Of a stretch of 64,000 nucleotides of DNA, positions 1,224 through 59,337 are shown piece by piece. Location: contig NC_087250.1 in assembly GCF_037042905.1 (NCBI RefSeq), positions 27,220,001 to 27,284,000 on the forward strand. The letters run 5' to 3'. The notes under the pieces were generated by a model that ran no database searches, was not told the DNA's origin, and saw only the letters and a list, made by a program, of their open reading frames with translations. The position numbers and the translations under genes are program-made. Position 1 is the stretch's first letter; each line of letters starts with the position of its first letter. The DNA is from Lytechinus pictus. Lineage: Eukaryota.

Positions 1224-4200
1224 TTAAATGAGCCATGCAATGCTGCCCTCGTTAATTGTAAAAAGTAATCTATTCATACACCATTTACGTGAAAAAGCAT
1301 CAATATTAGAACATAATTTGTAATAAGTAAATTCATAGAGTATTCTGTTTTTGAGACGATGTAACCAAATTATAAGTGGATCGGTGAAATTTGAGGTACG
1401 GTACATAGAATAAATTGTACTTTTTAAACTAATAATAAGGAAATTAGCAAGGCGGATAGTCTTTCCGTCACGCCCTCTGGCATGCGGAATGAGTGCCCAG
1501 TACAGGTCAAAATTAAGTTTGAGAGAGGGGAGGAGATTGTTCAACAGTCTATGAAGAAGATTGAGAGGGGGTTGAATTCCTTTACATTCGATGAACAGAT
1601 GTTGAATGGTTCCTGCTTCTCCGCACCATCCGCAAAAAGAAGAAATGTCTGTATTAAGATGATGGAGTACAGTGAGCGACGGTAAAATATTGTGAAGGAG
1701 TTTGTATTGAATATCAGCCTCTTTTTTAGGTGTTGGTAGTTGATAGATAGATAGCCAGTTCACTTTTGTAGATGGATCGAGAAATCCAGTATCATGCCAA
1801 TGTGAGCTTGATGAGATTGTCGTGTTATCTAGTTCTTTCCTGTAGATTGTGTAGATGGCTTTAGAAGAAGCAGTAAGTCCATTTTCGGAAGAAGCCAGAG
1901 TGAAGTTGATCGGAGTTACTGGAGCAGACAATAAATCAGAGTATTCGTGTTGACAGCCTGAGTCATTAAAATATGTAGGAAAAACTTTAGAGAGTGCAGT
2001 TCGAATGAGTAATGTTTCACGTTCGATGAGACGCGATGATGGTTGTCGAAGTCTTCTTGGAAAGTTCTTTTGGAGACAGCTACTCTCAATCCAAAGACCG
2101 GTTGAGTGGTTTATCAAATGGCGAACTAGTTTCACTCCGCATGCCATCAGGCGCGTCGGAAAAAAATTATCAACATCAATTGCATCAATAATATGAAAAC
2201 TACTTAACGGCATGTTAATTGCATGGCTGAAAGAGAGGGATTGTGTCACAATTCGAGCTCCAGATGTCAACCAAGCTCGCAGAACTTCACTATAGTAAAC
2301 TGGAAGACTTGTGTAAAACTTAGGATCAATTCTTGTAAAGAACAAATGGTAATCAAATCCTAATTTACAATACTGTCTCAGAAAATGAGCCATAAAGTCA
2401 TTTACTGGATGAGAATTTAACGAAAGAAACCGTTGAATAATCGAAAATCTGTAAGTTAGAACACGAGCTTGGAGACAAGCTAGCCCCAGCCCTCCTTCGT
2501 CAGGTTTTTCATACAACACTTCTTTCTTTAACCAGTGCCGCTTATTTGACCAGATAAAATTCACAATTAAATTCTGAAGTTCGTTTAATACATTTTCAGG
2601 AGGAGAAAGAACTGCAAGAACATGAAATATTTTTGATGCAGCGAGCTGGTTTGCAATCAATACCTTGCCTTTAAATGAGAGTGAGTTCGATAAACGAGAC
2701 CACGAAATGAAAGTCTTATTAAGTCTTTCTTTACATTTAATCCAGTTTTGTTTAGAATAATTAAAGGTGTTCCCTAAATGAACTCCTAAAAAAGGGAGAC
2801 CTTCACTATTCCAAGAAAAGTTGAGGGGTTTATCATTCCGCCCTTTCCAACGGCCGACCCAAAGGCCTTGTGATTTTTTTGTATTTAAACATGCAGCAGA
2901 GGCCAGACTAAACATATTGTAAGTTTGTTCAACTAATTCAAAGCCAGCATCGGCTGTAACAAATATCGATACATCGTCTGCATATGCAGATACTACACAA
3001 CGTTTGTTAATAGCAGGGATATTTAATGCATGATTTGACACGTTCTCTCTTAGTGAGTTCAGGAGAGGCTCAATGGCGAGAGTATATAGCAACCCTGATA
3101 GAGGGCATCCCTGTCGTATTCCTTTCTCAAAGGGGAAGGGAGCTGTCAGGGATCCACACACTTTAATAAGGCTTTCAGCCCCTTCATACAGAATTTGTAT
3201 ATAAGATATAAAATGACTTCCAAAGCCCATGCGTTTCATAACATTGAATAAATAAACATGATCTACATTATCAAATGCCTTTTTCTGGTCCAAGTTCAAT
3301 ACAGCCAAAGAAATATTATCAGTGTTTGCATAGAACAAAATATCTCTAATGAGATTAATGTTGTCATAAATAGAACGACCGGGGATACAATAACTTTGGT
3401 CTCTTCCAATAACATGGTCAATGCATGATTTTAGCCTACTGGCAAGCAGCCTAGCAAAAATTTTATAGTCTGTGTTGAGGAGGGAGACGGGACGCCAATT
3501 TGAAATATCAGCGAGGTCTCCTTTTTTGGGGAGTAAAGTAATGACCGCCCTCCTAAAAGAGTATGGTAAAAATCCAGATTCAAGAGAGGAGGTAAGAACT
3601 TCGAGAAAATCATCTTTGAGCATGGGCCAAAAGACATGATAAAATTCAGAGGTAAGTCCATCGATACCAGGAGACTTATTTTTGCCTAGCTGCTTGACAG
3701 CATTATCAAGTTCTTCTACAGATATTGGATTCTCAAGGTCCTTTGATAAGGACGGATCAAGCGTCTTGATATTTACAAGTAAACTATTGATGGCGCTCTT
3801 GTCAGTTGGCTTTCGAGTGTAAAGAGATTCATAAAATTCCCGAACATGATTTTTTATCTCAGAAGGGTTCTCCGAAATACGTCCCGAAGCGAGCCGAATG
3901 CGGGATATACTTTTTGATAAAGAATTCTTTTTTTCTAAGTTGAAGAAAAAATTGGAGCATGAGTCTGTTTCATTTGTGTATTTAAAGCGAGACCTCACAA
4001 GAGCTCCGCGTGCTTCATTTTTCAGTAACGAGTTTAATGCATTTCTATGCTCGTCGAGAGTATATTTATCTTGTTGGCTAGATTCTTTTGCGCTCTGAAG
4101 TTTATCAATCTCTTTGTTAATTTCTATTAGAGCTTGCCTTTTCCTTTGTACTATTTTTTTGCTATACATTTGAGTAATTGATTTTATATGAACCTTGCCG

Positions 4201-5081
4201 AAATCCCACCAAGATGCAAGGTTCGGGAAGTCATTTTTTTCTTTTTGCCAATCTGACCAAAAAAGACGAATAATATCAATGTAACTTTCGTCTTCCAAAA
4301 GAGTGTTATTAAAAATCCAATATGCACTTTTTCCTTTAGCTCGTATTGGAAATTTCAAGGTTAGAGAAACTGCAGAGTGGTCAGATAAGGAACAAGGTAT
4401 AATTTCACACTTATGAATAGAAGAAACTAGACACGATGGTACATAAAATCGATCTAATCTAGACTTTGAAAAGCCCTGTGCACTGGCTGGATTGTGCCGT
4501 TGCCAGGTGAATTTCTTTTCATTTGGATTTAGAAAACGCCATGCATCACAAAGAGAAGATTTATTCAGAACATTTTGCAAAGCCGTAACAAGTTTAGGTC
4601 TGCGTTCTGTGAGCGTGCACAAACGATCAATCGCAGGATTTTCAGTGCAATTAAAATCACCCACAATCACAATATTATCTTCGCAACAGGTGGATATATG
4701 ACAATTAAGGGCATTAATAGCTTTAATTGCCATTTCATCAGATTGAGGAATGAGTGTGTTGTATACATGATAAATACAGTTATTATGGGAGAGCTTGTTA
4801 TACAATATATAGCCATCAAAAACAATACAAGTAGATAAAATATCGACTTGAGAATTATTAACCAAAGTTGTCACTCCTGACCCTCGAGTAATACCGGGTG
4901 AGCAAAAAGGTTTATGCGACCAGTTGCTCCAGCAAGGATTGCTATCTTTAAGGTGGTAAGTTTCCTGTAAAAATACAACGAGCGGGTTGCATGCAATTTG
5001 CTCAACATAAACTCGGAAGGAGGCATTTTGAGTTTGGGAGGAGCATCCTCCGGTGTTGAGGGTCAGCATTGACAGTGCCAT
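1224..5081 (-). CDS. Tx1/L1-type ORF2: APE endonuclease + reverse transcriptase + C-terminal zinc finger (1285 aa)
   Basis: APE motifs FLQET, VGDFN, SRLDRFY, SDH. RT motifs KSPGIDG, NWRPVSLLNTDYKI, LDQKKAFDNV, GIRQGCPLS, AYADDV, FLGV. C-terminal CGWC...HLFIEC. Uninterrupted. Confidence 0.97.
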   Translation of the reverse strand: MALSMLTLNTGGCSSQTQNASFRVYVEQIACNPLVVFLQETYHLKDSNPCWSNWSHKPFCSPGITRGSGVTTLVNNSQVDILSTCIVFDGYILYNKLSHNNCIYHVYNTLIPQSDEMAIKAINALNCHISTCCEDNIVIVGDFNCTENPAIDRLCTLTERRPKLVTALQNVLNKSSLCDAWRFLNPNEKKFTWQRHNPASAQGFSKSRLDRFYVPSCLVSSIHKCEIIPCSLSDHSAVSLTLKFPIRAKGKSAYWIFNNTLLEDESYIDIIRLFWSDWQKEKNDFPNLASWWDFGKVHIKSITQMYSKKIVQRKRQALIEINKEIDKLQSAKESSQQDKYTLDEHRNALNSLLKNEARGALVRSRFKYTNETDSCSNFFFNLEKKNSLSKSISRIRLASGRISENPSEIKNHVREFYESLYTRKPTDKSAINSLLVNIKTLDPSLSKDLENPISVEELDNAVKQLGKNKSPGIDGLTSEFYHVFWPMLKDDFLEVLTSSLESGFLPYSFRRAVITLLPKKGDLADISNWRPVSLLNTDYKIFARLLASRLKSCIDHVIGRDQSYCIPGRSIYDNINLIRDILFYANTDNISLAVLNLDQKKAFDNVDHVYLFNVMKRMGFGSHFISYIQILYEGAESLIKVCGSLTAPFPFEKGIRQGCPLSGLLYTLAIEPLLNSLRENVSNHALNIPAINKRCVVSAYADDVSIFVTADAGFELVEQTYNMFSLASAACLNTKKSQGLWVGRWKGRNDKPLNFSWNSEGLPFLGVHLGNTFNYSKQNWIKCKERLNKTFISWSRLSNSLSFKGKVLIANQLAASKIFHVLAVLSPPENVLNELQNLIVNFIWSNKRHWLKKEVLYEKPDEGGLGLACLQARVLTYRFSIIQRFLSLNSHPVNDFMAHFLRQYCKLGFDYHLFFTRIDPKFYTSLPVYYSEVLRAWLTSGARIVTQSLSFSHAINMPLSSFHIIDAIDVDNFFPTRLMACGVKLVRHLINHSTGLWIESSCLQKNFPRRLRQPSSRLIERETLLIRTALSKVFPTYFNDSGCQHEYSDLLSAPVTPINFTLASSENGLTASSKAIYTIYRKELDNTTISSSSHWHDTGFLDPSTKVNWLSIYQLPTPKKEADIQYKLLHNILPSLTVLHHLNTDISSFCGWCGEAGTIQHLFIECKGIQPPLNLLHRLLNNLLPSLKLNFDLYWALIPHARGRDGKTIRLANFLIISLKSTIYSMYRTSNFTDPLIIWLHRLKNRILYEFTYYKLCSNIDAFSRKWCMNRLLFTINEGSIAWLI

Positions 5082-5135
5082 TATGGCTATAGCAACTTGA
5101 GCGTACGTAATGAATGGAGAGAAGGTAAAAAGGAA

Positions 5136-6680
5136 TTAGCTCTCCAGAGTGCTGATCAATTTGTATATCCTCTGCTGCATGTTACGTTTTACTAGGGGGC
5201 TGTTTTTCAGGGGCTTTAATTGTTTAACTAGCCCTGGAATATTTGATGTATATTTCCGTGCAATCTGGGCAGGCTTTTTCCGCCCTTTTACGTTTGACAG
5301 AAATTTCACAATTTGGCCTTGGGAGAGGGGGCCTTGAGTCAATGGGAGTGCATCTTCCTTCGGGACATCTTCATCCGTTTGGGCATCTTCCCAAGTCATG
5401 GAGTCAGTGTCGGTAGATGAATCTCCAACTGTGGAGGATGGGGTAGGAGGGATATTGGGGGTTTGGGAGTCAAGGACTTGCGTTAAGGTTGGAGAGTCTA
5501 CGGTTTCGGTTTGGGAGGAGGGAGCTTTCCTGGCCACTTTCCGAAGAGGAGAGGGGGCCTTCAGTGTAGTAAGAGTAGTATTGTTTTCGTTTGATTCGGG
5601 TGTTAGTTGCTTACGTTTTGAAACAACTTCAGAGAAAGTTCGGACAGGTGATGGGGGAGTTTTCCACACAGGCGAAGGGCACGCAGAAATAGATTTGGGG
5701 GGAGGGGACTTGGAGGACACGACTATTGGCGTGGTAGTTGAATTGCTGGACGGCTGAGCAGGTGATGTCAGAGGTATGTGCAGTGGGGAGGATTGAGGCT
5801 TCCTGATGCGCGAGGGGGTGGCTGAGGTAGAAAGGGGCCCACAATCACGAGGTGGTAAACTAGGGAAATCAGAGGAGGTGGGTACAGGTGGGGGCATTGT
5901 AGTTGCCGCCAAGGGGGGAGGTGATGGTGGCATGGGGTCCGAAACCGTAGTGAGGGGCGGGGAGGATCCGCGCTGGCGCACTCTCGTGTCATTTGAAGCT
6001 GGGGCAGCGTTTGTCTTTGACTGATTAGTATTTGTGCTTGTTTGAGGTTTCTTACAATTGCGGGAAATATGACCAAATTCACCACAGTTAAAACATCTGA
6101 CTGACTCAGTTGAAATAAAAACACGATAGTTCATACCTGAAAACACGAAATTAATGTTATCTGGAAGTGTTGTGTTAGGTTTCACTAACACTTGAACGTG
6201 CCTTCTAAAACTCATAATATGGTTTAGACGTTTGTCTTTAAATCCTAGAGGTATTGGTTTGCAGTCGGACACAACTTTGCAAAAAGGTGCTAGATTTTCA
6301 GTCAAGACAGAATTCGGTAGTTCTGGGTATACATTAGATAAAATGACTCGAGTAGTGGGCCGTACAAGGGGGGTTAGTTCAAGAAAGGCCCCCTCATACT
6401 CAAGGCCTTTTTGTACAGCATTGATAACAGCTTCTTTTGATTTTAGATACACAGCTATGCGACCATTAGAGATGCGAGAGGCAGATATTACGTCATTAGC
6501 GGGTATAGTTGTAGTAAAGACATTGATATAAGATTGTATCGTTACATTTTCAATAGCTTGAAAGCTTACACCATTGTGACGGGTGACATTTTTAAAATGT
6601 CCTACATTGTTTAACAAAGGGCCAGCTGCACTTGTGGTACGCTGGCCCTGTACACTACGTTGGTTTGCTTGACTGGCCAT
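5136..6680 (-). CDS. Tx1-type ORF1 nucleic-acid-binding protein with CCHC zinc knuckle (514 aa)
   Basis: CFNCGEFGHISRNC knuckle. SASRI / ILSNVYP / HIMSFRRHV segments resemble Tx1 ORF1. Pro/Ser/Thr-rich C-terminal half. Lies directly upstream of ORF2. Confidence 0.93.
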   Translation of the reverse strand: MASQANQRSVQGQRTTSAAGPLLNNVGHFKNVTRHNGVSFQAIENVTIQSYINVFTTTIPANDVISASRISNGRIAVYLKSKEAVINAVQKGLEYEGAFLELTPLVRPTTRVILSNVYPELPNSVLTENLAPFCKVVSDCKPIPLGFKDKRLNHIMSFRRHVQVLVKPNTTLPDNINFVFSGMNYRVFISTESVRCFNCGEFGHISRNCKKPQTSTNTNQSKTNAAPASNDTRVRQRGSSPPLTTVSDPMPPSPPPLAATTMPPPVPTSSDFPSLPPRDCGPLSTSATPSRIRKPQSSPLHIPLTSPAQPSSNSTTTPIVVSSKSPPPKSISACPSPVWKTPPSPVRTFSEVVSKRKQLTPESNENNTTLTTLKAPSPLRKVARKAPSSQTETVDSPTLTQVLDSQTPNIPPTPSSTVGDSSTDTDSMTWEDAQTDEDVPKEDALPLTQGPLSQGQIVKFLSNVKGRKKPAQIARKYTSNIPGLVKQLKPLKNSPLVKRNMQQRIYKLISTLES

Positions 6681-6889
6681 GTACGAACCAGTCTAGAAAC
6701 CTTACAAAAAATAACAGAAAATGTGTTTAAAAAACACTAAAATTGGTAAACCTGACGAAGGAGGATCGAGACTATATCAATCTATAACCCAACACAATTG
6801 TAATGGTACAAAAATCAAGGACCAAATGGTCATATAAATCAGTGAAAAACCAGAAAAACCGGAGCTCGAAAAAAACACAACTACCTCAC

Positions 6890-7003
<114 letters not shown>

Positions 7004-7934
7004 AAAAGGAAAGAAAAATAGGGGTACTAACTACGAAGAAGGTTACGACTTTTAGAGTAAAGACAACCAGTTGGCAAATCCAAGTCCATGTAGCCAGGCT
7101 TAGAGCCCTACTAGTCAGCAAAATACAAAGGACAAAACAGATGGAGCTATAATAACACACAAAGTAAGCCCCCGGTCCTCCCCCAATATAATTGAGTTTG
7201 CAAATTATACCACAATTATTGACGATTTAACAAGCACATTAGTTTTGTAAAATTAGAAGCAAGACTAGGTAAATAAATATGGGGTGGGATGAATTTCCAA
7301 GGTTTAAGTTGAATAATCAAAGCCAAAGTATAGTTGGCAAATTATAAAGTGGGCCTATTAAAGTGGCAGAACACTATACGCTCTACCAGTCAGCAAAGTG
7401 ATATACAAGTACTGCCCCGTTTCAGATCTGAAAATAAACAGAACTAAAGACTTAAAAAACTGGTAACTCTTTTGGCAAATTCATGAAGACAAGTCTACAA
7501 CTTGTAGACTTGTCTACAAGTTTGCAGTTGGCAAAAAACACAAAAATGTTCTAAGTTATTTTTACTAAATTCTGTCGCCGAAGATTTTTTTTTAATTCAT
7601 GGTGTCAGAATGTGCTTGGGGTGGGGATGGGTGGGAGTGGGGGCAGGTTGGGGTTGCATCATTCCTGGTGCTCTTATTGTCTGACTAATGAGATATATAG
7701 TCCTGTTGTATTTTAAGTCCATATTAAGATTATGCACCAAATCATCTCCTCGCACTTCAAGTTATTATTGTTTTATGTAGTGCCATATGCTTTTTTCATG
7801 ACTATATACTTAAAGTGATTGCCCCCTTTTAAGGCCTTAATAAAACATTTCCAGTCTGTGCTTACGTCCGCATTGGTGTGGACCGATATAGATACAGGGC
7901 TGGTGTTAAATCAACACTGGCGTTTTTGCAGTGC

Positions 7935-13765: not shown

Positions 13766-15459
13766 GCTCTTGCTTTAGCTTTAGATTCCCATCATCCATT
13801 AGTGAGATAATTATATCCTCTCAACAATTTTTATGCCTCTTAAAAAGTGTTCAAAGGTTTCCACTTTTGGTCACTATAATAAAATTTTCACCTTGCGCTT
13901 TGGACTCGCATCAATCATAAAATTAAGATACACAAATTGTTCTTTATTTTAAAAACGTGCTTAAACTTTTCAATTTTCAGATGGGAATATGAAAATATCC
14001 CAGCTCGCACCCCAAGTTTGTATGGCTTAATTAATCATGCTTAAAAAATTCAATTTTCAGTATAGATAAAAAAAAAAAAAAATCAGCTCGCACTTGGCAC
14101 TCGCATCAATTTTTTTATTATAAAGGCATCTTATCTTGAATGATTATACGCGACCACAAAGCGTGAGCTGCATTTTTTTTTTATTCTAACCTGAAAAACG
14201 AAAATGATCTTTTTCATATTATTATAGAAAATTTCAGCTCGCAATTCGCGCTCACATTTTTTGTACTTATCCCTTGTAAGATACCTTACCGTGTTTTTGA
14301 GAATCTTCGGACGGTTTCTACAAAACATATTTATTTTGGTGCCCCCTACAAATGTTCAAGCAGCCCCCCCCCCCCCCTCCCAGCTGAATTAAGTCTCAGA
14401 TACGCCATTGCCTTCAAGATTACATTAATTCCAAGGGAGGTTATCAATAATATTTCTAACCTCCCGCTCACACAATTCTAGGCCTACTCTGATTAAAAAA
14501 TACATGAAATTGAAACCCCCAAATACTTAAAACACAAATTACTCGCGCTTTGCGCTCGCATTTATTCTTTTTGAAGAAAAAGTGACATTACATATATTAT
14601 ATATATGTGGATTTATTTCCTTCATGAAAATATGATTAAAAAATAGTGGTCTTCAAATGCCGTGTTTTATGTGACTAGGAAATAAAATAATTCAACACGC
14701 ATTTAAAGCACTTTTCTTGCTCGGCGGGGAGGGAGGAGGCGTATTTTTTTCTCTCTAAAATGGCACCAAAATCAGGTCAGGTTTCTGCCCCTCCCTACGA
14801 AATCCCAGATCTTATTATCATTATTCTATACATGAGGAATTTCGTATATCATTTTTTACAATGAAAAGAGCCTTTAGACTTTTTTCTCTTCGAACATTTA
14901 AATTTCGCTGTAACTTATGCTCACTGCATATACTAAATTTGTGCCCTAAACATACTAGACATCTTTTTGACGTTGTTTGTCGTTTTCTCTACGCACTATC
15001 ATAATTTATTTCCAAAATTCTTTGCAATTTGAGCACTGATCCACGTTTATCATGAGCTAAAAATAAAAACCATACCACCTAATATGTTTATACACTGCAC
15101 CTCTTCGTGTATTCGTGTTTAATAATACATTATACAAGGATCTCAATTCAACTAAAGGAAAAAAAAAGTATTAAATTAAGTGTTGTTTTATCGGTTCACA
15201 AAACAACGCAAGAAAAATTAAGATTAAATCTGAGAACACTTTCACTGTGAAGGTTTCTGAGAAAGCGAGAGAATGTTTAATATACCCTCGTAATTTTTTG
15301 ATCAAATGTTTCTTGAGTTCATTTTAACTTTTCTTGCGTTTTTTTTTTTTTTTTTTTTTTTAGGTAGGCTACTGTCCCTATTTTATCTTCGTCATGGCGT
15401 CTAAGTTCCCAAAAAAGAAGGGTGGATAGGACGAGCTTCGTACAAGGAAAGGTCATGAC

Positions 15460-17046
15460 ATGAAATGGTCATGTGACAAGCATGGTGAGCCAATGAAATT
15501 TTACTGTAAGAAACACAAAATTCCTATTTGTCATCCATGCGCTACCAAAGATCACAGTCAAAAACCATGTCAGCTAGACGACATCGAGGATGTCATCTTC
15601 GAAAGGAGGAGACAGCTAGATGAAAAACGGCCAAAAATACAGGAACTTCAGAAACAATTGGACGCCCTCAATGGGAAAATAAAGACTGTGTCAACGTCTG
15701 GAAGTACTCATCTTCGGAAAATTAACAACAACATTCAAGATTCATATCACGACAAGATCGAATCTGTTGGAGAAAAGGAGAACAGGATGATTAGGGTTAT
15801 TAACGAGGAGGCAGATGAGGAAATAAGACTCGTAAATGAGAAGAGAGAAAAACGGATCAAGGATTGCAACACCGAGAGAGAAAATGAGCGACAAATCATC
15901 AAAGACAAAAAAGCAAAACTTTTATCAGATGCAAAGAAAATCAGCGAAGTTGTTTCTAAGAAGATCAAAGATCTTGCTAATAAGAATCAGCATGTAATAA
16001 ACACTGTAAAGAACATTGAATCAACCATCAAACGTATAAACCAACATGATGAAACATTGGTGAATGAAGCTCCTCAAGTACTTGCATCTATTAATGAAAA
16101 TTTAAGTTTGAATGTTCATCAAGATGATAGCGACTGTCTTGACCGAATACAGAGTGAAGTTGATAGAGTGAAGTTTGTAGAGGGGGAAGTAGGTGGAGAA
16201 TACTATGGTAGAATTGATGGGTATATTGGTAAATGGGAACTTGTCAAGACAATTCACATTCCATCGGTTGTTAATAACCCGTATGTGCATGGTTTAGTCA
16301 GTGATGATGAGATATGTGTGCAAGACGTAGGTAACTATGACATGTATATTACAAACATCAAAACTCAACACACAGAGAAAGTCATTGATGGAGGTGTGCG
16401 ATCATGTGCGCCCATAGACAGTAACGTAATAGTATGTGGTAAGATGAGAGATGATTACACGGGTGACAGGTTGGATGGATGCATCACTCTCTATGACAGA
16501 CAATGGAAGGTGATTAGATACATCAGCATACCAAGGAATGGATACGATAGTCGTGTGTATGTTGATGTTGACAGGGATGGGATGATCATTGCTGCTCAGT
16601 TAGCTCAGTCTAATATCTACGTCATCAATCCTGCTGATGATAAGATAGTAAACACTATTACGATGCAGGGTAAGGTGGTGTGTGATGAGATACAAGCCTT
16701 GTCATCAGGTGATATCGTTGTGAAGACAGGTAATGATAAATACACTGTCATCTCACGATCAGGAAAAGAGAAGGCTGTCATACACTGTGATGAGTGGGAC
16801 TGGTCAGAGTGTTGCGTTGACAAACTGACAGACACACTCTACATCGCGTACAGGGATGAAGCGCGTAATACATACGCAGTTGATCAGGTGTCACGTGATG
16901 GTATCATCCAGGCAAGGAGGATCGTGGAATACGTGCAATCAGATCGCTCTCACTGGGTCAGCCCTTGTCTTGTTACTCCTTCTGGTAACCTCGTAGGATG
17001 TGATGGAGACAAACTTCTTATCTACAAGAACACATTAATCTTGTAA
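15460..17046 (+). CDS. RING-less TRIM-like protein: B-box zinc finger, coiled coil, C-terminal NHL-like beta-propeller (528 aa, single coding exon)
   Basis: CDKH...FYCKKHKIPICHPCATKDH..KPC fits a type-2 B-box. A long E/K/I-rich helical region follows. The C-terminus has repeated beta-blade motifs (VDVDRDGMII, IYVIN, IQALSSGDIVV, CLVTPSGNLV). Splice acceptor at 15363; several AATAAA downstream. Confidence 0.88.
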   Translation: MKWSCDKHGEPMKFYCKKHKIPICHPCATKDHSQKPCQLDDIEDVIFERRRQLDEKRPKIQELQKQLDALNGKIKTVSTSGSTHLRKINNNIQDSYHDKIESVGEKENRMIRVINEEADEEIRLVNEKREKRIKDCNTERENERQIIKDKKAKLLSDAKKISEVVSKKIKDLANKNQHVINTVKNIESTIKRINQHDETLVNEAPQVLASINENLSLNVHQDDSDCLDRIQSEVDRVKFVEGEVGGEYYGRIDGYIGKWELVKTIHIPSVVNNPYVHGLVSDDEICVQDVGNYDMYITNIKTQHTEKVIDGGVRSCAPIDSNVIVCGKMRDDYTGDRLDGCITLYDRQWKVIRYISIPRNGYDSRVYVDVDRDGMIIAAQLAQSNIYVINPADDKIVNTITMQGKVVCDEIQALSSGDIVVKTGNDKYTVISRSGKEKAVIHCDEWDWSECCVDKLTDTLYIAYRDEARNTYAVDQVSRDGIIQARRIVEYVQSDRSHWVSPCLVTPSGNLVGCDGDKLLIYKNTLIL

Positions 17047-23778: not shown

Positions 23779-26700
23779 GGATTGGAGTGGGTCGCACCTC
23801 ATTTTTCCTGTATCATTTCGTCTTGTTTATTAGTGATTCGTAAGTCCTTACTGCACAATTTTTGAAATATAGTATACTTTGGATCTATGGATACACCTCG
23901 GAGCAGAATTGTGTGAGTTTGTGTTGAACTTTTCGTGTATATTAATTTTACAATTTTGTACATCATTACGCACCATCGTCATTTCTCAATGGACTTGTAT
24001 TACATACATTCACACATAGCTAGAGCTTCATGTTTGTGAAACGATACATGGATGTGAACCGCACTGACAAATCGCATGTTGATTACGTAACAGTCATAAA
24101 TATTCACGATGTATTGTCACAGCCAGTTCGGGTTGGTCTCCATAGTGACCCTGTTGCTACTTACCGGGTCTGTGTTGCTTTTTACTAATACCACCTATGA
24201 TTCCGATTATGGTGTAAAAAACTCTGAACAAACGAACATTCGGAAAATAAAATATCTGAAATGTCCAGTATCGTATTACAATACATGCAATTCATGTTCA
24301 ACGTTCAACATATGCATACTTTGCCATGGCGATGTGGAGAAAAACCCAGGTCCTCGTTCCCACTCCAATAACCCACCCCAATCTGACTCACAACAGGGTA
24401 CATCAACAAATCGTCCAATTACCCAAATCTCCTCTGTTATATTTAACGCTCGAAGTTTAAGGAATAAGATGAATGAATTTAATTCATTCTCTGAGACGTC
24501 ATCCCCAGATATCATAGGAATTACCGAAACCTGGTTCTCAGATATGGACACAACGGTTGATGTCCATTTCCCCGATCACGTAACGTTCCGTCGAGACCGA
24601 TCAGGAACCAGGGGTGGAGTTGTACTGCTTGCTGTCAAACCTAACCTGATACCAAAACGCCTCCCGCAATTGGAAAACGCCAATATTGAGATGGTGTGTG
24701 TCGATTTTGCCTGTAAACCCAACATCAAATGGCTTATCTGCGTACTGTATCGCCCGCCATCAGCAACTGTTGAATTCTGGGATCACCTACAACAAGCAGT
24801 CGACGACATTCAGGCTATCTCTTCTGACTATCAAGGGATCATTCTTACTGGAGACTTTAACACCAACTGGGCCGATCAAGAGCTCCCCATAGTTCATCAG
24901 CTAGACTCCATCATGTCATCGATGGATCTTACCCAGCTAGTAGAAGATATCACTCGACGTTCGTCCCAAGACCCTTCCAGGGGAACTATCATCGACTTAC
25001 TTTTCACAACTTCTCCCTATTATATTGATAATGTTCAAACCATGTCCAACCCAGTCTCAAGTGATCATGACGCAGTTTTCTTCGAAATAAAGTTTAAGAA
25101 GCTCCGATCTCCTAAAAATATTATTAGGGAATTCTTACAGTACGATAAAACTGATGTTGAACATTACAATAATCTAATTACTTACGCCCCTTGGGAATTG
25201 TTTTTCGACGAAACCGATATAGATAAGGCCTGGGAAGGGTTTCATGATTTGTTTGATGCTATATCACGTGATTGCATTCCAAGGAAAGTGGGTCGTGCCA
25301 AACAACGTAGCCCATGGATCACGGATGAAGTCCGGAAGTTGGCCTCTGAAAAAAGTAAAGCTTTCAAAAAAGCAAAGAAATCAGGCTTAGACACTCATTG
25401 GGAACTGTATAGACAATTACGGAATCGCATTAAAATTATTACCAGTATATTATACCATTCCTTTATAAACCGCTTATTTTCTGATGAATCCGATAATAGG
25501 AAGAGATTTTTCTCATTCGTCAGGGCCCAGAAAAAGAGTCAAGATCCTCTAACAATCAATGACAATAACATAATATTGTATGAGTCTGATAAGATCGCGG
25601 AGTTGTTTGGTCGATATTTCAATTCTGTTTTCACACCCTATTCTGATGCACCAATAGAAACCCCCCCCCCCCCCCCAATTAGAGGAAAATCCACTTGCTA
25701 CATACTTACGTACTATTGAAATCAAAGAAATAGATGTGCTTAATGTGGTAAAAGGTTTGAAGAAGGAAAAATCTCCAGGTCCAGACAAAATCACTCCAAT
25801 GATGTTGAAATTGGGTTCTACTACCATTACACCTGTATTATGTAAGATATTTCGCCTCTCACTCTCTTATGGTAGATTGCCTATGTCTTGGAAACGTGCC
25901 AATATATCCCCTGTGTTCAAATCCGGGGATAAGGCTCTGGTACAAAACTACAGACCTATTGCCCTAACTTCGGTTGTATGCAAAGTATTGGAACGTATCG
26001 TAACAAACCGTATTCAAACACATATCAGTGACCATTGTCTACTTAACCCTAACCAACATGGTTTTGTGAAAGGCCGCTCTTGTGTGACTCAGTTAATGAA
26101 TATTACAAACAAATGGTTGAATTTTCTTGATACCTCTCCCACACCAAAACTTGACGTTATCTTTTTCGACTTTGCAAAAGCTTTCGATATAATGCCACAT
26201 GACGTGTTGATGAAAAAGCTCGCTTCACAATTCTTCATTACTGGAAGTGTCTGGAATTGGATTTTTTCCTTCCTTCATGGTAGGGAACAAAGAGTAATTT
26301 ACAGGGGTTCCACCTCTTGCTGGTTGCCCATAACTTCTGGTGTACCGCAAGGCAGTGTTTTAGGGCCGTGTCTCTTTAATTTGTTTATAAATGACCTTCT
26401 CTCCCAAACCATATCATCATGTGCACTTTTTGCTGACGATACGTTATTATACAGACCAATATTTACACCCTCTGATAGTTGTCAGTTGCAAAACGATATT
26501 GATAATATTCATTCATGGTGTACGAACAATAGAATGCGTATTAATTCATCCAAATCTAAAGTTCTACGGATAACATGGGCAAAGAACCCTGGAGTACCTT
26601 ATTATACTTATGACAATATTGTTCTAGAATCAGTTCAGCAATACAAGTATCTAGGAATAATGCTTAATAATAAGTTACAATGGAATACTCACGTTGAACA

Positions 26701-27676
26701 CATTGTTAAGAAAGCAAATCGTATGCTCGGTTTTGTATTGTCAGTCTCTAAGTCCTTGACCGCATCTTCCATATTCTCCTTGTTCAAAACAATTGTTCTT
26801 CCGATTCTTGAGTACGGTCAACCAGCTTGGCACTTGCATACGAAATATCTATCCCAAAAGGTCGAAAATGTTCAGAGACGAGCCACCCGCATAATACTCA
26901 AACAAAAAAGACAAGAAATGTCCTATCATGACAGATTATTAAAACTCAACTGGCAAACATTGGAATCAAGGAGGAAATTTTCACTACTATTTTATGTTGT
27001 CAAGGCTTTGTATGGTATTGTACGTTGTGATGCAGTTAGATGTTCCATTATCATTAACAGTCGGCATTTGGAGGACGTGAAGTTCAACCACCTCCGAGCG
27101 CGAACAAATCGACTTCATCTATCAGCTATTAATTCTTTTCCCCGTTACTGGGATGAATTGCCGGTAAGTTTGCGCTCTGGGGTGGTTGTTAACTCACTTA
27201 TCTCATGGATGAATGAACTAAGAAACAATTTTGTGCTTAGCCGGTGATGAATGACCATGTTTATTTTTGCAGGAGTTTATTATTTAGGATTGTGTTTGTG
27301 GCAGTTATCCTTGTTGTTTTTATATCTTCGTAGCGACTATTTTATTTTTAAATTTAAATTCATTGATATTGATATTTTAAGTTAAGATGAAGTGATATCA
27401 AGTAGACCTATGTTATTCTATTATAATTGATCTTAAACCTTTTTGTTCATACTCACTCTTTTATCCGCTTCTGTTTTATGTAAGCACCCACTGGATAGGG
27501 TCAAATGGTCTTCATTGACTACAGTAATTCAGTTAACTTTATTTGACCCTGGCAGTCCAGTGGGTGCTCAATCTATACTCTGTTATGTTTATTATGTGTT
27601 GTACTTCACTGTACCAATTTCTATACTTTTCACTGCCGAAATAAATAATAATAATAAAAAAAAAATAATAATAATA
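23779..27676 (+). mobile_element. Single-ORF CR1/L2-group LINE (APE + RT) with a 2A motif; near-intact
   Basis: Begins after a poly-T tract and ends in an (AAT)n/A tail. Interrupts a repeat that is contiguous at ~14700-14810. Confidence 0.9.
24109..27247 (+). CDS. LINE polyprotein (leader-2A-APE-RT), ~1045 aa if one C is removed from the C16 run at 25661-25676
   Basis: GDVEKNPGP; NARSL, GITETW, YRPP, GDFN, SDH; KSPGPD, NYRPIALTS, NQHGF, DFAKAFD, GVPQGSVLGP, LFADD, YKYLG. The only lesion is a frameshift in a homopolymer. Confidence 0.88.
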
Positions 27677-28892: not shown

Positions 28893-29010
28893 AAAAAGTT
28901 GGATAACATCATATCTATAAATTCTTGATTACAGGGGGTATTACGATCTAACAAGTTCAAATTAAAATCTCCCATTATAAAAACCTTTTTCGCTGATGTG
29001 GTTTACGGTA

Positions 29011-31365
29011 CAACTCAAGCCAGACGACCTAGACAAAGTTCAGGCATTCAACAACTACACATCTCGCAAAGCCTTCCAGTCCACCAAACTTAAGCAAATC
29101 AACAAGTTCGACCGACTCCACTCCCGCAAGCCTACACAAGCCAACCAACAACCTTCGACCGAAGCAACCAAGGACACCGTAATCAACCTGAGCCGACACC
29201 AACTTACCCAAGCCGAACACAAAGTACTCTCCCTCGGACTCAACTTCGCCGTAGCTCCTAAGAAGATCCCCTTCTCCGACATAGTACAGCAAGTCGAACC
29301 CAAGCTCCGGTTTCTTTCCAAAGCGGCCGCCAACGAAATTAGACTCAAAGTAACCAATGCTCTCTCCGACGCCAAGCCACCTAAACCAAACCTCTCGAAA
29401 GAAGAACACTCTGCCATCCAGGACCTCCGACGTAACCAAGCCATCCACATCCTTCAGGCTGACAAGGGCAACGCCACCGTTATTATGGACCAAGACGTAT
29501 ACGATGACAAGATCGAAGACATTCTCCAGGACAAGGAAACCTACTCCAAACTCAACAGAGACCCAACTCCGGCCAACGAAAGGAGAATCAACCAACAACT
29601 GCTAACCCTACACCGATCTGAAGCACTACCCAAGGCACTCTACTTCCAACTCAGATCCTCTTCAGCCAAGTCTCCAATCCTATTCGGACAACCCAAGATA
29701 CACAAGCCTAACACTCCTCTCCGCCCTATCATCTCCACCCGCGGGTCACCCTGCTACAACACAGCACGTCATCTGGCCAACATCCTTCAACCACTCGTAG
29801 GCCAAACCCAGCACCATGTCACCAACTCCAAGCACTTCATTGACGTCGTCTCCAAGACCAAGATCCGGCCCTCCGACACACTCGTCAGCTTTGATGTCGT
29901 CTCCCTCTTCACCAGCGTACCTGTAGACCAAGCATGTGACATCATCAAGCAACGCCTGATCACCGACTCAGACCTCGCATCCAGAACCAATCTCACACCA
30001 GACCAGATCCATGACCTCCTCCTCACCTGTCTCAACTCCAACTCCTTCAAATGGCGCAACAACTACTACAAACAACTACAAGGAGCAGCCATGGGTTCAC
30101 CTCTCTCACCAATCATCGCTAACATCTTCATGGAACATTTCGAGCACCAAGCACTCAAGACTGCGGACAAACCTCCTTCACTCTGGCTCCGCTATGTCGA
30201 CGACACCTTTGTCATCTGGCCGCACAGCACACCCGACCTTCACCAGTTTCTCAACCACCTCAACCACCAGCACCCCAGCATCAAGTTCACCATGGAGACC
30301 CAACGCGACGACTCAATCCCTTTTCTAGACGTTCGCATCACCAAGACACCATCTGGATTCCCATCTCACCAGGTGTACCGGAAACCCACCCACACAGACC
30401 GCTACCTCAATTTCCGCTCACACCACCACCCATCCGTCCACCAATCAGTCGCCCGCACTCTCATCAGACGAGCCCACCAACTCAGCGACAAGGCACACTT
30501 ACAGCAGGAACTCAAGCACGTGACCAATGCACTCACCACCATCAACCATTACCCCAGGAGAAGGATTAACACTCAACCGTCCAGCCACCAACCCAACACC
30601 AACAGAACGGAAAACCCATCCGAAACCAAGCCTATCGCCACCATAGCACTTCCCTACATCGGCAAGACTTCACACCGACTACAACGCATCCTTCACTCTG
30701 CCAACATCCTCGTCAGACACCAATCCTCTCGCAAGCTACACTCCATCCTGCACTCTCATAAGGACAAGCACCCATCCAACAAGCAACCAGGCGTCTACAA
30801 GATCCCCTGCGACTGTGGCAAAGTCTACATTGGAGAAACCGGCCGAGACTTCGACACCAGACTCAAGGAACACAAGACCCACCACCGACGCAGCGACTGG
30901 GACCGATCTGCCATCGTCAAACACGCACAACAGGAAAATCACAGCATAGACTGGGACAAGAGCCACCTAATCACCAACATCCGGCACTGGAATACCAGAA
31001 GGGTCAGGGAAGCCATTGAGATACATCAACACAACACCGTGCCTCAAGACCCTGGTCTCCACATCAACACCATCTGGCACCCAATCCTACGTCACCACCC
31101 AACTTCCAACCAATCCACAACCAACTCCACAAGCAACTCGCCGTCCACCGTCACCCTACCAAGCCCTCCTACCCAACACAGCAGTCTGATCGAATCACCA
31201 ACTCAACCAGCAACTTCGCCGACGCACACGCCACCGACACCGACGCCTCGCTACAACCTCCGCCGACGACCCAACACCTCATCCGCACACCAGGCCACCC
31301 ACTCAATCCCGCCGAAGCCTACCCGACGAGTCCGCCGACCAACACGCACGGAACGCCACCACTGA
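29011..31365 (+). CDS. Penelope-like RT + GIY-YIG endonuclease (N-terminally truncated, otherwise open)
   Basis: ADKGNATV, PKIHKP.TPLRPIIS, SFDVVSLFT, GAAMGSPLSP, WLRYVDDTF, PFLDV, YRKPTHTDRYL; GVYKIPCDCGKVYIGETGR...RLKEH. The listed ATG at 28996 comes from the inverted junction fragment, not the native start. Confidence 0.93.
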   Translation, partial: QLKPDDLDKVQAFNNYTSRKAFQSTKLKQINKFDRLHSRKPTQANQQPSTEATKDTVINLSRHQLTQAEHKVLSLGLNFAVAPKKIPFSDIVQQVEPKLRFLSKAAANEIRLKVTNALSDAKPPKPNLSKEEHSAIQDLRRNQAIHILQADKGNATVIMDQDVYDDKIEDILQDKETYSKLNRDPTPANERRINQQLLTLHRSEALPKALYFQLRSSSAKSPILFGQPKIHKPNTPLRPIISTRGSPCYNTARHLANILQPLVGQTQHHVTNSKHFIDVVSKTKIRPSDTLVSFDVVSLFTSVPVDQACDIIKQRLITDSDLASRTNLTPDQIHDLLLTCLNSNSFKWRNNYYKQLQGAAMGSPLSPIIANIFMEHFEHQALKTADKPPSLWLRYVDDTFVIWPHSTPDLHQFLNHLNHQHPSIKFTMETQRDDSIPFLDVRITKTPSGFPSHQVYRKPTHTDRYLNFRSHHHPSVHQSVARTLIRRAHQLSDKAHLQQELKHVTNALTTINHYPRRRINTQPSSHQPNTNRTENPSETKPIATIALPYIGKTSHRLQRILHSANILVRHQSSRKLHSILHSHKDKHPSNKQPGVYKIPCDCGKVYIGETGRDFDTRLKEHKTHHRRSDWDRSAIVKHAQQENHSIDWDKSHLITNIRHWNTRRVREAIEIHQHNTVPQDPGLHINTIWHPILRHHPTSNQSTTNSTSNSPSTVTLPSPPTQHSSLIESPTQPATSPTHTPPTPTPRYNLRRRPNTSSAHQATHSIPPKPTRRVRRPTRTERHH

Positions 31366-31581: not shown

Positions 31582-31622
31582 ACTCCTGAAGACGGACAGT
31601 CAACCTGCCCGAAACGTCGAGT
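31582..31622 (+). ncRNA. Minimal type I hammerhead ribozyme in the PLE pseudo-LTR
   Basis: ACTC-CTGAAGA-C-GGACAG-TCAAC-CTGCCC-GAAA-C-GTC-GAGT. Conserved core, stem I ACTC/GAGT, stem II 5 of 6 bp, loopless palindromic stem III (ACGT), GUC cleavage triplet. Confidence 0.82.
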
Positions 31623-54959: not shown

Positions 54960-57900
54960 TCTTTCCCTTCCATTTATCACACTTTTAAGTACATTTTCTA
55001 TTTCATCAGAGTTTTCTTTTTCCTATATAGATTACCTAATATTAAAAGTTTACCCGTTCTTTACTCCTTAATGTTTTATAATCTTATGCCTCAGTACAGA
55101 TGGGTTCATGGTCCAGCGCACAAAGAGTTAATTCTCGTTTAACTACTTTAATTTCTTTAGTTGTTTCAGTTGTCTTTTTGTTATTTCACTGATTTAGTTC
55201 AATATAAATACAACAAGTTCTTCTCTTTAATGTCAGCTACTAATGGTCTGAAAAATAAAGGTCTAAAATTTGAACCTCACGAATCATGATAATGTTTTGA
55301 TAAATCTATAAAGAATTCACCCCTGTTGAATACAAAAATGCCATAATTCGCGTGTTATATTGAAAATATGTCATTGCGTGTCAACCCACACTGTTCTATT
55401 ATGTTGATAATATGTCATTGCGTGTCAACACAGACTGTCCTATTATGTTGATAATATTTCATTGCGTGTCGACCCAAGGCTGTTCTATTATGTTGATGAT
55501 AATGTACCGGCACCCACTGGAACTGTAACTAACAAGGGAAAATAAAAATAATAAAAAAGGGACAAACTTGGTATGGCAGTTTTTTCATAAAGTTGTTCCG
55601 AAGTTACGAATGGCTTTACTCAAGACTAGAATATGTTCACAGTTGTTAAAGTCAGCTCCAAGTCATAGGGATCCGTTAACCAAATAAATGTTCACCAGTC
55701 TGTGTAAAGTTATTCGTCATAACTCACGAACAGCTTTATGATACACACAATATATATATTTTCACATTCACATTGACTGATAACAAAAGATTACCAAAAC
55801 CTTTGACTTCCATTTCTGAAAGCAGCAGCTTGGTTTATAGTTCGTGTATGTACTGTTTGAAGGTATGACGGAATGATTGTTAGCATGAAAAGAGAAGATA
55901 ACATTCTAACCTCCGTGGATGAGACCCGCTATAGAAAATTGAGTATCTGAATATAAAAACGGTCAAGTCCAATTGAGTTAGATATGGGAAATTGTTCCTT
56001 ATACAATGACTCATCTTGTGTATAAATGATAAATCTGAAATCATCTCTGAAAAGGGGAGAAAGCTGGTTTGAATGTAATAAAAGCCAATGTCTAGGACTT
56101 AATTGTCCCTCTATTTTCTATTTCATCGGAGTTTTATTTACCCTTGATTACCTACTATTAAACTTTTACACGTTTTTTAACAAGTATATTGTTATCAGCT
56201 TCTTCATTGTTTTGTAATCTTATGCCTCTTAATTCTTGTTTAACTACTTGTAATTTATTTCGTTATTTCAGTTGTTTTTCGTTATTTCACTGATTTAGTT
56301 CAATATAAATGCAACATGTTTTTCTTTTTAATGTCAGCTACTGATGGTCTGAAATATAAAGGTCGAAAATTTGAACCTCACGAATCATGATAATGTTTCG
56401 ATAAATCAATAAAGAATTCACCCCTGTTGAATAGAAAAAAAATGCCATAATTCGCCTGTTATATTGAAAATATGTCATTGCGTGTCAACCCACACTGTTC
56501 TATTATGTTGATAATATTTAATTGCGTGTCAACAAAGACTGTTCTATTATGTTGATAATAATGTACCGGCACACACTGGAACGGTAACTAATGAGAAAAT
56601 AATAGTAAATAGGACAAACTTGAATTGGCAGTTTTTTCATAAAGTTAAAGTTACGAATGGCTTTATTCAAGACTGGTACATGTTCTAATCTGATAAAGTC
56701 AGCAGCATAGGGATCCGTTAACCAAATAAAGGTTCACCAGTCTGTGTAAAGTCATTCGTCATAACTCACAAACAGCTTTATGAAACACCAAACATATATA
56801 TTTTCACATTGACTGATAACAAAAGATCACTGCCAGGAAAGAAATTCAATGCAATTCTAATGTTTCAGTTGACATGGTTGAGTTCAAACATGTGTTTAAA
56901 ATATTTACTTGGTCCAGGTTATGGTAGGCCTGTAGACAATTGTATATGTACATATGTTTTGAATGTTTCAAAAGCAAGCGTTGGAAACGTTTGATACCCC
57001 CCCCCCCCCGCTTAGAGTAAAAGTGTACCAGGTTTATGTCATATTTTGTAAAGGTGTTAACATATTTCTTATTAGGTGAAGCATTTTCATACAGGTATCA
57101 TAAATAGCAAAAAGTGCTCTAGCAATGATGAATGTAGGTGTAGAGATGCCCATGAAGTTTTTTGTTATTAAGAATGTGTCGCTTTATGCATTCATCTGTT
57201 ATTGAAATTCTTTGAATTACTTTATATAATTTTTACAGTTAGTCCTAGTAACGGTAGGGTATATTATGAGGTTAGTTTTAGTAATTCAGGGAGAACCACC
57301 TAAGCTAGAATAAACCACATATGTTCGTATAGGCAGTCTAAGTTAGAACTGAGGGACTACGTCGGTGACGAGATAACGACCCCAGCTGCCGCCGGTTCTC
57401 CACCGACATGATTGGTCAAAATTCATGTCTTCATTGGGGGCTCGATCTCGTCCACTAATTCGTTGAAGCCTCATCTCTCTGATCTGGGGGTTACTCATCA
57501 AGGGGCAACACAGTCTGCGGAGGCCGAGGCCGAGTGGAAGAGACATCGCTAGCTGCGGAGGCCAGGAACTGGACCGACCACCAGGGCCGAGTGGGGCATG
57601 TCAGGCCAGATGAGATGATGGGGGCTAGTGTCAACGATTACCGTTAAGTTGTATTTTGTTATATCTATATATATTTTCATGTACAATTAGTGTAAACCCA
57701 ATCAAAAGGATACCACAGAATGACAAAAGAGATTTGATTAAATCTTTTTTAATAGCTGTATTCATCAGTTTTACGTATTCTTTATTTGGTGTCAAGCAGC
57801 AGTAAGTAAATACTTTAAAAAAGTCACTTCCCACGTGACAATCACCAAACCTTTGACCTCCATTATTGAAAGCAGTTTGGTTCATAGTTCGTGTATGTAC

Positions 57901-58155
57901 TGTTTGAAGGTATGACAGAATGATTGTTAGCATGAAAAGTGGAGATAATATTCTAACATCCATGGATGAGACCTGCTATAGAAAATTGAATATCTGAATA
58001 CAAAAACGTCCAATAGAGTTAGATATGGAAAATTGTTCCTTATACAATGACTCATCTTGTGTAAAAATGATGAATCTGAAATCATCTCAGAAATGCCTTA
58101 AATTAAAGGGTGGGAAGCTGGTTTGATTGTAATAAAAGCCAATGTCTGGGACTTG
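54960..58155 (+). repeat. ~1.1-kb tandem duplication (~54960-56100 vs ~56100-56830 + 57841-58155); third diverged partial copy at ~45870-47660
   Basis: Shared TTTGAACCTCACGAATCATGATAATG, AATGTACCGGCA, TCCGTTAACCAAA and GAAGGTATGAC blocks in the same order. Confidence 0.88.
56831..57840. mobile_element. Solo LTR (1010 bp)
   Basis: TG...CA ends (TGCCA / TGACA). 5-bp TSD ATCAC (56826-56830, 57841-57845). Absent from the duplicate copy at ~55790. Confidence 0.8.
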
Positions 58156-58805
58156 GGCTTTTCTTATAAAAAAGGGTTTTTCTTACATTTATATCCAAGC
58201 GCCCTCTCTCTTTACATCAATACTGTACATGCACTAACTGCATTATAAGTTGTTTTTGGTTTGACAGAGATGTTGTGCAATCGTTGTGACCAGAGGCGTC
58301 GATCATGGGGGGGGGGGGGCAGGGGGGGCAACCGCCCCACCAATGAAAATATTGGGGGGGGGGCAAACATATCGTTTTGCCCCCCCAATAATTCCGCATG
58401 TGCAAAAAATAAAATAAGATTGTAATGTAACACATAAATCAGCAAGCGAGATTGAGATACGCAACTCGTTCTTCATCTAAAATCGTGCTCAAAATGTCCG
58501 GTTTTCAGATTAGAATATTAAAAATTTTCAGCTCGCGCTTTGCGCTCGCATCATTTCTGTAGCAAAAACCCATACTTTTCATGATTGAATAGGTGAATAG
58601 AATGTCCCGTTTTCAGTTCTATACCTCAAAAGAACTCCCACTTCGATTTGCAATAACCTTTTGTTGGATATATTTCTTGTTCTTTATTAAAAACGTCAAT
58701 TAAACTCTTTTTTTTAAAGATCAAAATATCAAAATTTTCAGCTCGCGCTTCGCGCTCTCATCTATTATTTTTTTATTTTTTTTTAAATTTAATTTGTTGG
58801 TGAGA

Positions 58806-58878
<73 letters not shown>

Positions 58879-59097
58879 TTTCCTCACCTCTGGTCTACCA
58901 ATGGTTTCGCGCCTCGATCACGGGCGGCTCATCAGGACACTGAAGCTAGTTGGATTTGGTGGGGGCCCTCGGTTGGGGCAATGGATGCATTTCACGGTCC
59001 GGCGGTTCTTTGTTCCTTCTTTTGTGATTTAATATATATATATAATCTATATATATATACATATAGGCGTATGTGTGTGTGTGTGTGTGTGTGTGTT
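58806..59097. repeat. Compound (TG)n/(TA)n microsatellite split by a ~160-bp insert
   Basis: (TG)n(TA)n at 58806-58873, unique insert, then (TA)n...(TG)n at ~59032-59097. Confidence 0.9.
58893..58938 (-). ncRNA. Minimal type I hammerhead ribozyme in a ~160-bp insert (58874-59031)
   Basis: Minus strand reads GTC-CTGATGA-GCCGCCCG-TGAT-CGAGGCGC-GAAA-CCA-T-TGG-TA-GAC. Perfect core, stem I GTC/GAC, stem II 7 bp with two bulges, stem III ACCA/TGGT, GUA triplet. Confidence 0.75.
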
Positions 59098-59337
59098 TGA
59101 GTCTGTTTGTTTTGTGTGATCGAGCGCCTTTGGAAAGTTGATTCACGATTTTGCCCCCCCAATCTGAAAAATGGATCGACGCCCCTGGTTGTGACGGATT
59201 AAAAGTATTCATCTGAACCTTAAACCTTTTTTCAATGTTATATTATTTTTATTTTCCCCTTCTTTTGGACATGATGAGATTGATGTTTTCAATATTGATC
59301 AGATGTAAAGTGGAATCTTGATGTGTTTTGGACCAGG

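Follow-up and report, generated by a model that had tools for sequence, protein, structure and literature searches.

Penelope-like retrotransposons of the Hydra clade have already been described together with their (TA)n target and their ribozyme. According to the main text and supplementary files of that study (Craig et al. 2021, PMC8557442), the clade is defined by C-terminal motifs, by hammerheads and by insertion into (TA)n, which is listed for 26 of the 27 published families. Its members have a GIY-YIG domain without CCHH, a CxCX5C linker and a single ORF with DKT and RWK within less than 3 kb; stem III of their hammerheads is palindromic, with 4 bp around a centre of 1-2 nt, and their alignment rows carry ELISTCRH-type ends where other clades are gapped. 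Sea urchins are unmentioned in the main text. Cleavage as a dimer was proposed by Cervera and De la Pena (2014, PMC4209133). It has been shown that the Poseidon protein PAc of the green anole nicks AT-rich DNA and uses uncut RNA, and that two adjacent internal starts of reverse transcription bound an optional tail (Frangieh et al. 2024, PMC11167929). The article text names no conserved signal for the internal start and does not contain the word Hydra.

Here, we analysed a stretch of 64,000 nucleotides from Lytechinus pictus (the window) and found that a short insert in it is very probably a 5'-truncated copy of a (TA)n-targeting element of the Hydra clade. Of such a Penelope-like retrotransposon, the insert would comprise the hammerhead motif and the ORF end, with the last 26 codons and the stop (Table 1). 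A preliminary description of this DNA had considered a Penelope-like origin, which is supported by an ORF tail with 24 of 27 positions identical to protein P0002 and a Hydra-type end. It had also spoken of a possibly undescribed family; the clade is described, but the element family of the insert looks new.

Table 1. Features of the insert and its surroundings (window coordinates), and related loci with twin hairpins
Feature	Position or loci	Strand	Basis
End of a Hydra-clade RT-endonuclease ORF (26 codons, TAG stop)	59026..58946	-	24/27 identical to P0002 C-terminus
Type I hammerhead motif	58893..58938	-	Motif scan and folding; layout as in the Hydra table of PMC8557442 File S2
Possible stem I extension past an internal loop, two registers	58882..58946	-	Predicted only (folding)
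5' truncation point; other copies run on into the ORF	59027..59028	-	Loose ends of X1 and X4 behind 59027/59028, of X17 behind 59013
3' end of the copy; TATA common to element and target	58870..58892	-	Loose ends before 58870, 58876 and 58880
(TA)17 target array at the element's 3' end	58840..58873		Repeat scan
Interrupted TA array at the truncated 5' end	59030..59065		Repeat scan
Host element, ~900 bp, with short terminal inverted repeats, holding the TG/TA microsatellite	58291..59187		Inverted ends by eye
Near-identical twin hairpins	L008, L010, L012, L016, L038, L041, L044, L046, L047		
Further twin hairpins	L050, L057, L062, L063, L088, L089 and others		

The insert had been called non-coding, but it carries the end of an ORF. 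The frame is open over 59026-58949, and its TAG lies 10 nt before the hammerhead core. P0002 was the sole protein returned for the ORF-tail query (1 candidate; tblastn E 1.5e-10). It is an endonuclease fragment whose end reads CNLC..E..N..ELISTCRH, and the window copy starts at the H of CxH. The ELISTCRH end corresponds to a Hydra-only column block in the text of Fig. S7 (PMC8557442). P0002 has 89 relatives among 250 candidates, giving a set of 90 proteins. Two Hydra-clade endonuclease patterns occur in 85 and 72 of these, both of them in P0002, and a GIY-YIG-like pattern was found in P0002 and 77 of the 90; by eye, this region of P0002 lacks the inner cysteine pair (no CCHH motif). All 16 long relatives (650-900 aa) contain DK[TS] (as a loose pattern), a CxC..C-P-x4-C linker and YxDD, and 14 of them RW[KR]. 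The linker is present in 74 of the 90 proteins, while P0002 starts too late and holds only the last two of its cysteines. Pfam detected no GIY-YIG in P0002 and neither RT nor GIY-YIG in the eight relatives scanned. The domains of the Hydra-like proteins are suggested by these motifs and by a likeness, judged by eye, to the published alignment, in which P0002 appears to resemble Hydra-2_Ajap.

The window contains a second element with a hammerhead. At 28981-31365 on the plus strand lies a 794-codon open frame with RVT_1 and GIY-YIG matches, followed by a minimal hammerhead at 31586-31618; from motifs read by eye, this element would be of Penelope/Poseidon type. We rejected a Penelope/Poseidon kinship of the insert, as the Hydra proteins are only 19-38% identical to this ORF and no DNA match was found, the ribozyme included. 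This agrees with the earlier remark that the two hammerheads are unrelated in sequence, for which BLAST similarity is indeed absent.

The hammerhead core noticed on the minus strand of the insert is real. We located CUGAUGA at 58935-58929, a GC-rich, bulged stem II at 58928-58909, GAAA at 58908-58905, a 9-nt near-palindromic stem III at 58905-58897 and the cleavage triplet GUA, with a predicted cut between 58896 and 58895. Folding closes the motif by a stem I of 3 bp and gives stem II 6-7 bp; of the two registers for an extension of stem I, the predicted energy favours 58942-58946 with 58890-58886. It was the single match of the motif scan in the 64-kb window, compared with 0.17 loose and 0 strict matches per window in 100 resampled controls. 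The motif near 31586 was missed because the scan allows no spacer between the core and stem II.

Sequence variation among copies in four public runs (X1, X12, X17 and X4) touches several parts of the ribozyme. In one X1 contig a stem II pair is preserved by a double change at 58925 and 58911, and core or stem positions 58909, 58930 and 58935 are altered in some X1 contigs. The centre base of the palindrome, 58901, varies in X12, X17 and X4, with no change listed at its two neighbours. Runs X1 and X4 commonly show a two-change variant of upper stem II (58917, 58922) that X12 and X17 lack; from this distribution, there are at least two subfamilies.

For a comparison across the clade we used 96 loci encoding relatives, namely the best 80 of 470 from metagenomes and 16 from genome contigs. 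The latter (L081-L096) are contigs with Hydra-clade elements that were deposited as bacterial genomes, several of them of invertebrate symbionts, and are probably animal or host DNA within microbial assemblies. The endonuclease end is reached in 91 of the 96 loci, and a hammerhead follows it in 66 of these 91. Where 350 nt of room was available, a hammerhead was found behind the ORF in 47 of 59 loci and on the reverse strand in 3 of 59. This recurrence of the same motif in the same place argues against a chance match and against a regulatory ribozyme of the host that has nothing to do with mobile elements, as does the 24/27 identity of the ORF tail. It is true that Rfam gave no hammerhead match in the window and that the insert region folds no better than shuffles (z 0.69 and -1.09). 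The folding result is uninformative, however, and Rfam likewise missed the hammerhead in all 20 related loci scanned. We regard such an unrelated origin as extremely unlikely.

The preliminary description had assigned stem III a 1-nt loop. Its near-palindromic nature was confirmed, but such a loop cannot close in a single molecule; the monomer forms 3 bp with a 3-nt loop at +0.4 kcal/mol. In the monomer ensemble the pairing probability of stem III is 0, and the catalytic fold (-15.6 kcal/mol) lies 4.6 kcal/mol above the minimum-energy fold (-20.2 kcal/mol). Two copies of the palindrome as an intermolecular duplex reach -8.9 kcal/mol. After removal of near-duplicates, 49 hammerhead loci of the clade remained, 48 of them with a stem III of 9 or 10 nt. 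A fourth pair in this stem would leave a loop of 1-2 nt, which is impossible within one molecule. Nevertheless, the fourth pair is Watson-Crick in 42 of the 48 loci, with all four types represented, while shuffling, which ignores kinship, gave a mean of 14.0 and reached 42 in none of 10000 trials. A pair that cannot form in a single ribozyme and is yet mostly Watson-Crick favours dimer cleavage, as had been supposed for the insert. The ribozymes of Hydra elements thus likely cleave as dimers and that of the insert only as a pair, as far as covariation and folding can tell. The covariation of stem III makes the dimer idea a clade-wide prediction.

The insert had been taken for a stand-alone unit of about 160 bp ending at 59031. 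It is single in the window by BLAST, where searches for the two continuations of its family gave 0 and 0 matches. Copies elsewhere were compared in the assembled contigs of the four runs, which show presence and not absence; counts from them are lower bounds, as the listing gave 21 of the 51 loose ends and 28 of the 152 pieces, and contig depth was not taken as copy number. We found that other copies extend past both ends of the insert. To the left of 58870 a common sequence continues in X1, X12 and X4, and to the right of 59027-59028, where the family sequence stops in the window, another one continues in X1 and X4 (in X17 from 59013). Hand-translated on the element strand, this right-hand sequence of X4 and X1 encodes the residues that precede the ORF tail in P0002. 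In X17 a synonymous codon change was found at the residues before the insert's ORF tail.

Among the ends listed, the truncation points of other copies are scattered (58914, 58918, 58929, 58930, 58936, 58944 and 59015). One X1 contig contains a head-to-head joint of two truncated copies on opposite strands (58907/59015). In X1 and X12 coverage drops from the 3' (ribozyme) end toward the 5' side. On 58874-58945, X12 shows many very short copies with little beyond the ribozyme, several of them TA-rich on the truncated side. The observation that (TA)n lies on both sides of the insert was correct (Table 1), and with TA-rich flanks at several other copy ends (among the ends listed, and with no background count) the proposal of (TA)n as the target is supported as well.

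Three interpretations as something other than a truncated copy can be weighed against these data. A monomer of a small retrozyme family, one of the two identities first offered, found no support, given that the insert is protein-coding, that its family continues past both ends and that no head-to-tail joint of a 160-bp unit is listed in the four runs. A piece of a non-autonomous Hydra derivative, i.e. a retrozyme-like tandem unit that includes the ORF tail and spreads in trans, would agree with the several-fold greater coverage of the ribozyme end than of the ORF tail in X12 and with its many very short pieces; moreover, retrozymes of 51-972 bp derived from pseudo-LTRs are reported by Li et al. 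2026 (10.64898/2026.07.22.740005). Yet no joint returning to the insert start is listed (two joints in all in the contigs of the four runs), and the frame is open, with the synonymous change. As record 28 of X4 extends 320 letters beyond 59027 and no return was listed for it, any tandem unit would have to exceed about 470 bp, again with the reservation that contigs show presence and not absence. We consider such a derivative quite unlikely.

The other identity first offered, a solo pseudo-LTR, came close; a 5'-truncated insertion, with the ORF end still in it, is the better reading. A solo pseudo-LTR could be left when a longer tandem insertion is deleted by recombination or slippage in TA arrays, and the flanking arrays could support such a deletion. 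However, its right end lies inside the ORF, where other copies continue, and the scatter of truncation points is what incomplete reverse transcription predicts, which makes this origin very unlikely.

The stretch of the insert is widespread in public data. It is wholly or partly contained in 21 of the 24 listed runs, 20 of them with at least half of its words, and these runs belong to 12 studies with four organism labels as well as marine metagenomes. No RNA run was listed with the stretch; that the contigs of X17 and X4 are RNA-derived is only a guess. The part 58924-59027 is near-identical across the four labels, with 104 letters and 0 differences for label D, 75 and 0 for A, 59 and 0 for C, and 61 and 1 for B, which may reflect close relatives, label variants or horizontal transfer. 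A DNA pattern scan for the family gave 0 matches in metagenome contigs, the insert had no BLAST match in the 96 related loci, and viral contigs yielded 0 relatives among 8 candidates. Protein searches found no full-length member of the insert's own family, and its RT is thus unseen.

The preferred explanation, a truncated Hydra-clade insertion, starts from direct observations: an ORF end, a ribozyme motif, TA flanks, a family that continues on both sides and head-to-head joints. The TA microsatellite would have been nicked by the element's own RT-endonuclease. Reverse transcription would then have begun at an internal RNA site, in a TATA shared with the target array, and halted after about 155 bases. 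From PMC11167929 and from the copy ends, the internal start would lie just before a conserved hairpin, some 25 nt past the point where the ribozyme cuts. Since the copy spans about 25 nt past the predicted cut site, the RNA template would have been uncut or rejoined there. The ribozyme itself would act in tandem transcripts, as a dimer formed via the palindromic stem III. The window copy has no RT, identifiable promoter or partner ribozyme and is probably inert, an ordinary dead copy.

In longer copies the 3' end region is followed by a small bulged hairpin at the left loose end, which we read by hand and compared with a published consensus and related loci. By eye, a similar hairpin stands at the ends of four of the six new Hydra consensus sequences in PMC8557442, the main text of which does not use the words hairpin or stem-loop. 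We searched for it with the pattern GCTC, N, inner stem, N, two bases, GAGC[AG]C; as RNA, the hairpin consists of GCUC, a covarying pair, a variable upper stem, a 2-nt bulge and GAGCAC. Of 34 non-redundant loci that offer enough room, 19 contain the pattern at a distance of 36-61 nt behind the cut site, and the reverse-strand control gave 12 matches in 275,791 nt. When both of its positions were left unconstrained in the search, the fifth pair proved to be Watson-Crick in 60 of the 62 distinct motifs (39 C-G and 21 T-A; 33.2 when shuffled). The next three pairs include 59 Watson-Crick, 11 G-U, 4 A-C and 19 other combinations, which would lean mildly toward the sense strand as RNA.

Moreover, the hairpins come in pairs. 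Gaps between successive motifs are below 100 nt in 21 of 38 cases (20 of them at 59-83 nt; 18 non-redundant pairs), and a further 11 of the 38 are 2343-2496 nt, which is one element length. The twin hairpins lie between the ribozyme and the start codon, and for 16 of the 21 pairs an open ORF begins 13-40 nt after the second hairpin. They are outside the window, as the window copy stops before hairpin 1. Copies of Hydra loci often end in TA just before one hairpin or the other: among 15 loci without hairpin 1, seven have a TA-type tract in its place, and among 17 loci with room behind hairpin 1, four continue into hairpin 2, seven into a TA tract and six into something else. Six of these seven tracts start 27-42 nt on, about where hairpin 2 would be expected. 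With such mixed sequels, the link between copy end and hairpin is a tendency and not a rule.

We consider it possible, though somewhat short of probable, that the hairpins are an undescribed pair of conserved RNA signals, each of which binds the RT-endonuclease and sets one internal start. This would explain both the optional tail and the end position of the present copy. That the two hairpins set two starts of reverse transcription seems likely to us, with protein binding as a further inferred step; they may instead act in transcription or translation. Rfam did not match the hairpins in the 20 loci scanned, and literature searches, which covered openly accessible article text, listed no paper that describes the twin motif. 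The choice of internal starts and the formation of tails have been shown for one element only (PMC11167929, main text), and the value of the insert is that of a pointer to a signal common to dozens of divergent Hydra families, which adjoins their copy ends and can be directly mutated in an assay. The hairpin may also serve as a marker by which element ends can be located in the Hydra clade, where Pfam missed the proteins.

The surroundings of the insert are rich in other repeats. The microsatellite belongs to the element at 58291-59187, which we take to be of hAT type and which is flanked by an 8-bp direct repeat (58283-58290 and 59188-59195); there are thus three nested layers. Duplicated local segments were seen by eye at ~55350-56100, 56460-56830 and 57840-58150, including a 44-bp tandem unit. 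On the minus strand, 1224-6692 holds a non-LTR element whose two ORFs are open, one with a zinc knuckle and the other with endonuclease, RT and zf-RVT; it is located between (GAAA)n arrays at 1008-1085 and 6890-7016 and, as we presume, possibly microsatellite-targeting and Tx1-like. On the plus strand, 24100-27247 encodes a LINE-like endonuclease and RT in two overlapping frames, and 15430-17046 is an uninterrupted frame of 538 codons with a B-box zinc finger. A position of the insert antisense in a probable intron, as previously assumed, found no support, with Pfam identifying no host exon in the 17 nearby ORFs scanned (17 of 30 listed); short exons may have escaped the scan.

Compared with retrozymes, as outlined in PMC7229834 and the preprint 10.64898/2026.07.22.740005, the insert shares a type I hammerhead on a short dispersed repeat, for which an ancestry from pseudo-LTRs has been proposed. 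Retrozymes are, however, non-coding tandem units of 150-450 bp with at least two ribozymes, whereas the insert codes for an ORF end, is single, has one ribozyme and shows no returning joint in the four runs. Its hammerhead also differs, with a helix I of 3 bp and a helix II of 6-7 bp instead of 6 and 4 bp. Like the hammerheads of metazoan Penelope-like elements presented in PMC4209133, it has a short helix I, a long bulged helix II and a small palindromic helix III, in the layout of the Drosophila virilis type variant, and these ribozymes were proposed to be dimeric. As helix III of the insert allows three intramolecular pairs, it is not a strictly minimal motif, unlike that of the element at 28981-31365.

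The closest likeness is to the Hydra clade and, within it, to Hydra-2_Ajap of Apostichopus japonicus, going by the text and supplementary alignments of PMC8557442. Common to both are the C-terminal endonuclease with CxxC and CxH around conserved E and N, the hammerhead near the 3' end with a 4-bp palindromic stem III, and the (TA)n target; the bulged hairpin behind TA at the 3' end is likewise shared with the clade. Unlike Hydra-2_Ajap, the insert's family has a longer, Pro-rich C-terminal tail. Its core lies 10 nt behind the stop codon, compared with mostly 28 to more than 300 nt in relatives, and its hairpin 1 follows the cut site after about 28 nt, compared with 34-61 nt. With PAc, as characterised in the text of PMC11167929, the Hydra elements have in common an AT-rich target and copies that extend past the ribozyme cut site, and probably also two internal starts of reverse transcription that bound an optional tail. 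In PAc the starts fall within one AC-rich stem-loop 111-118 nt inside the ORF, with a tail of 30-40 bp, whereas the Hydra loci have two near-identical bulged hairpins 59-83 nt apart and upstream of the ORF, with copy ends just 5' of each.
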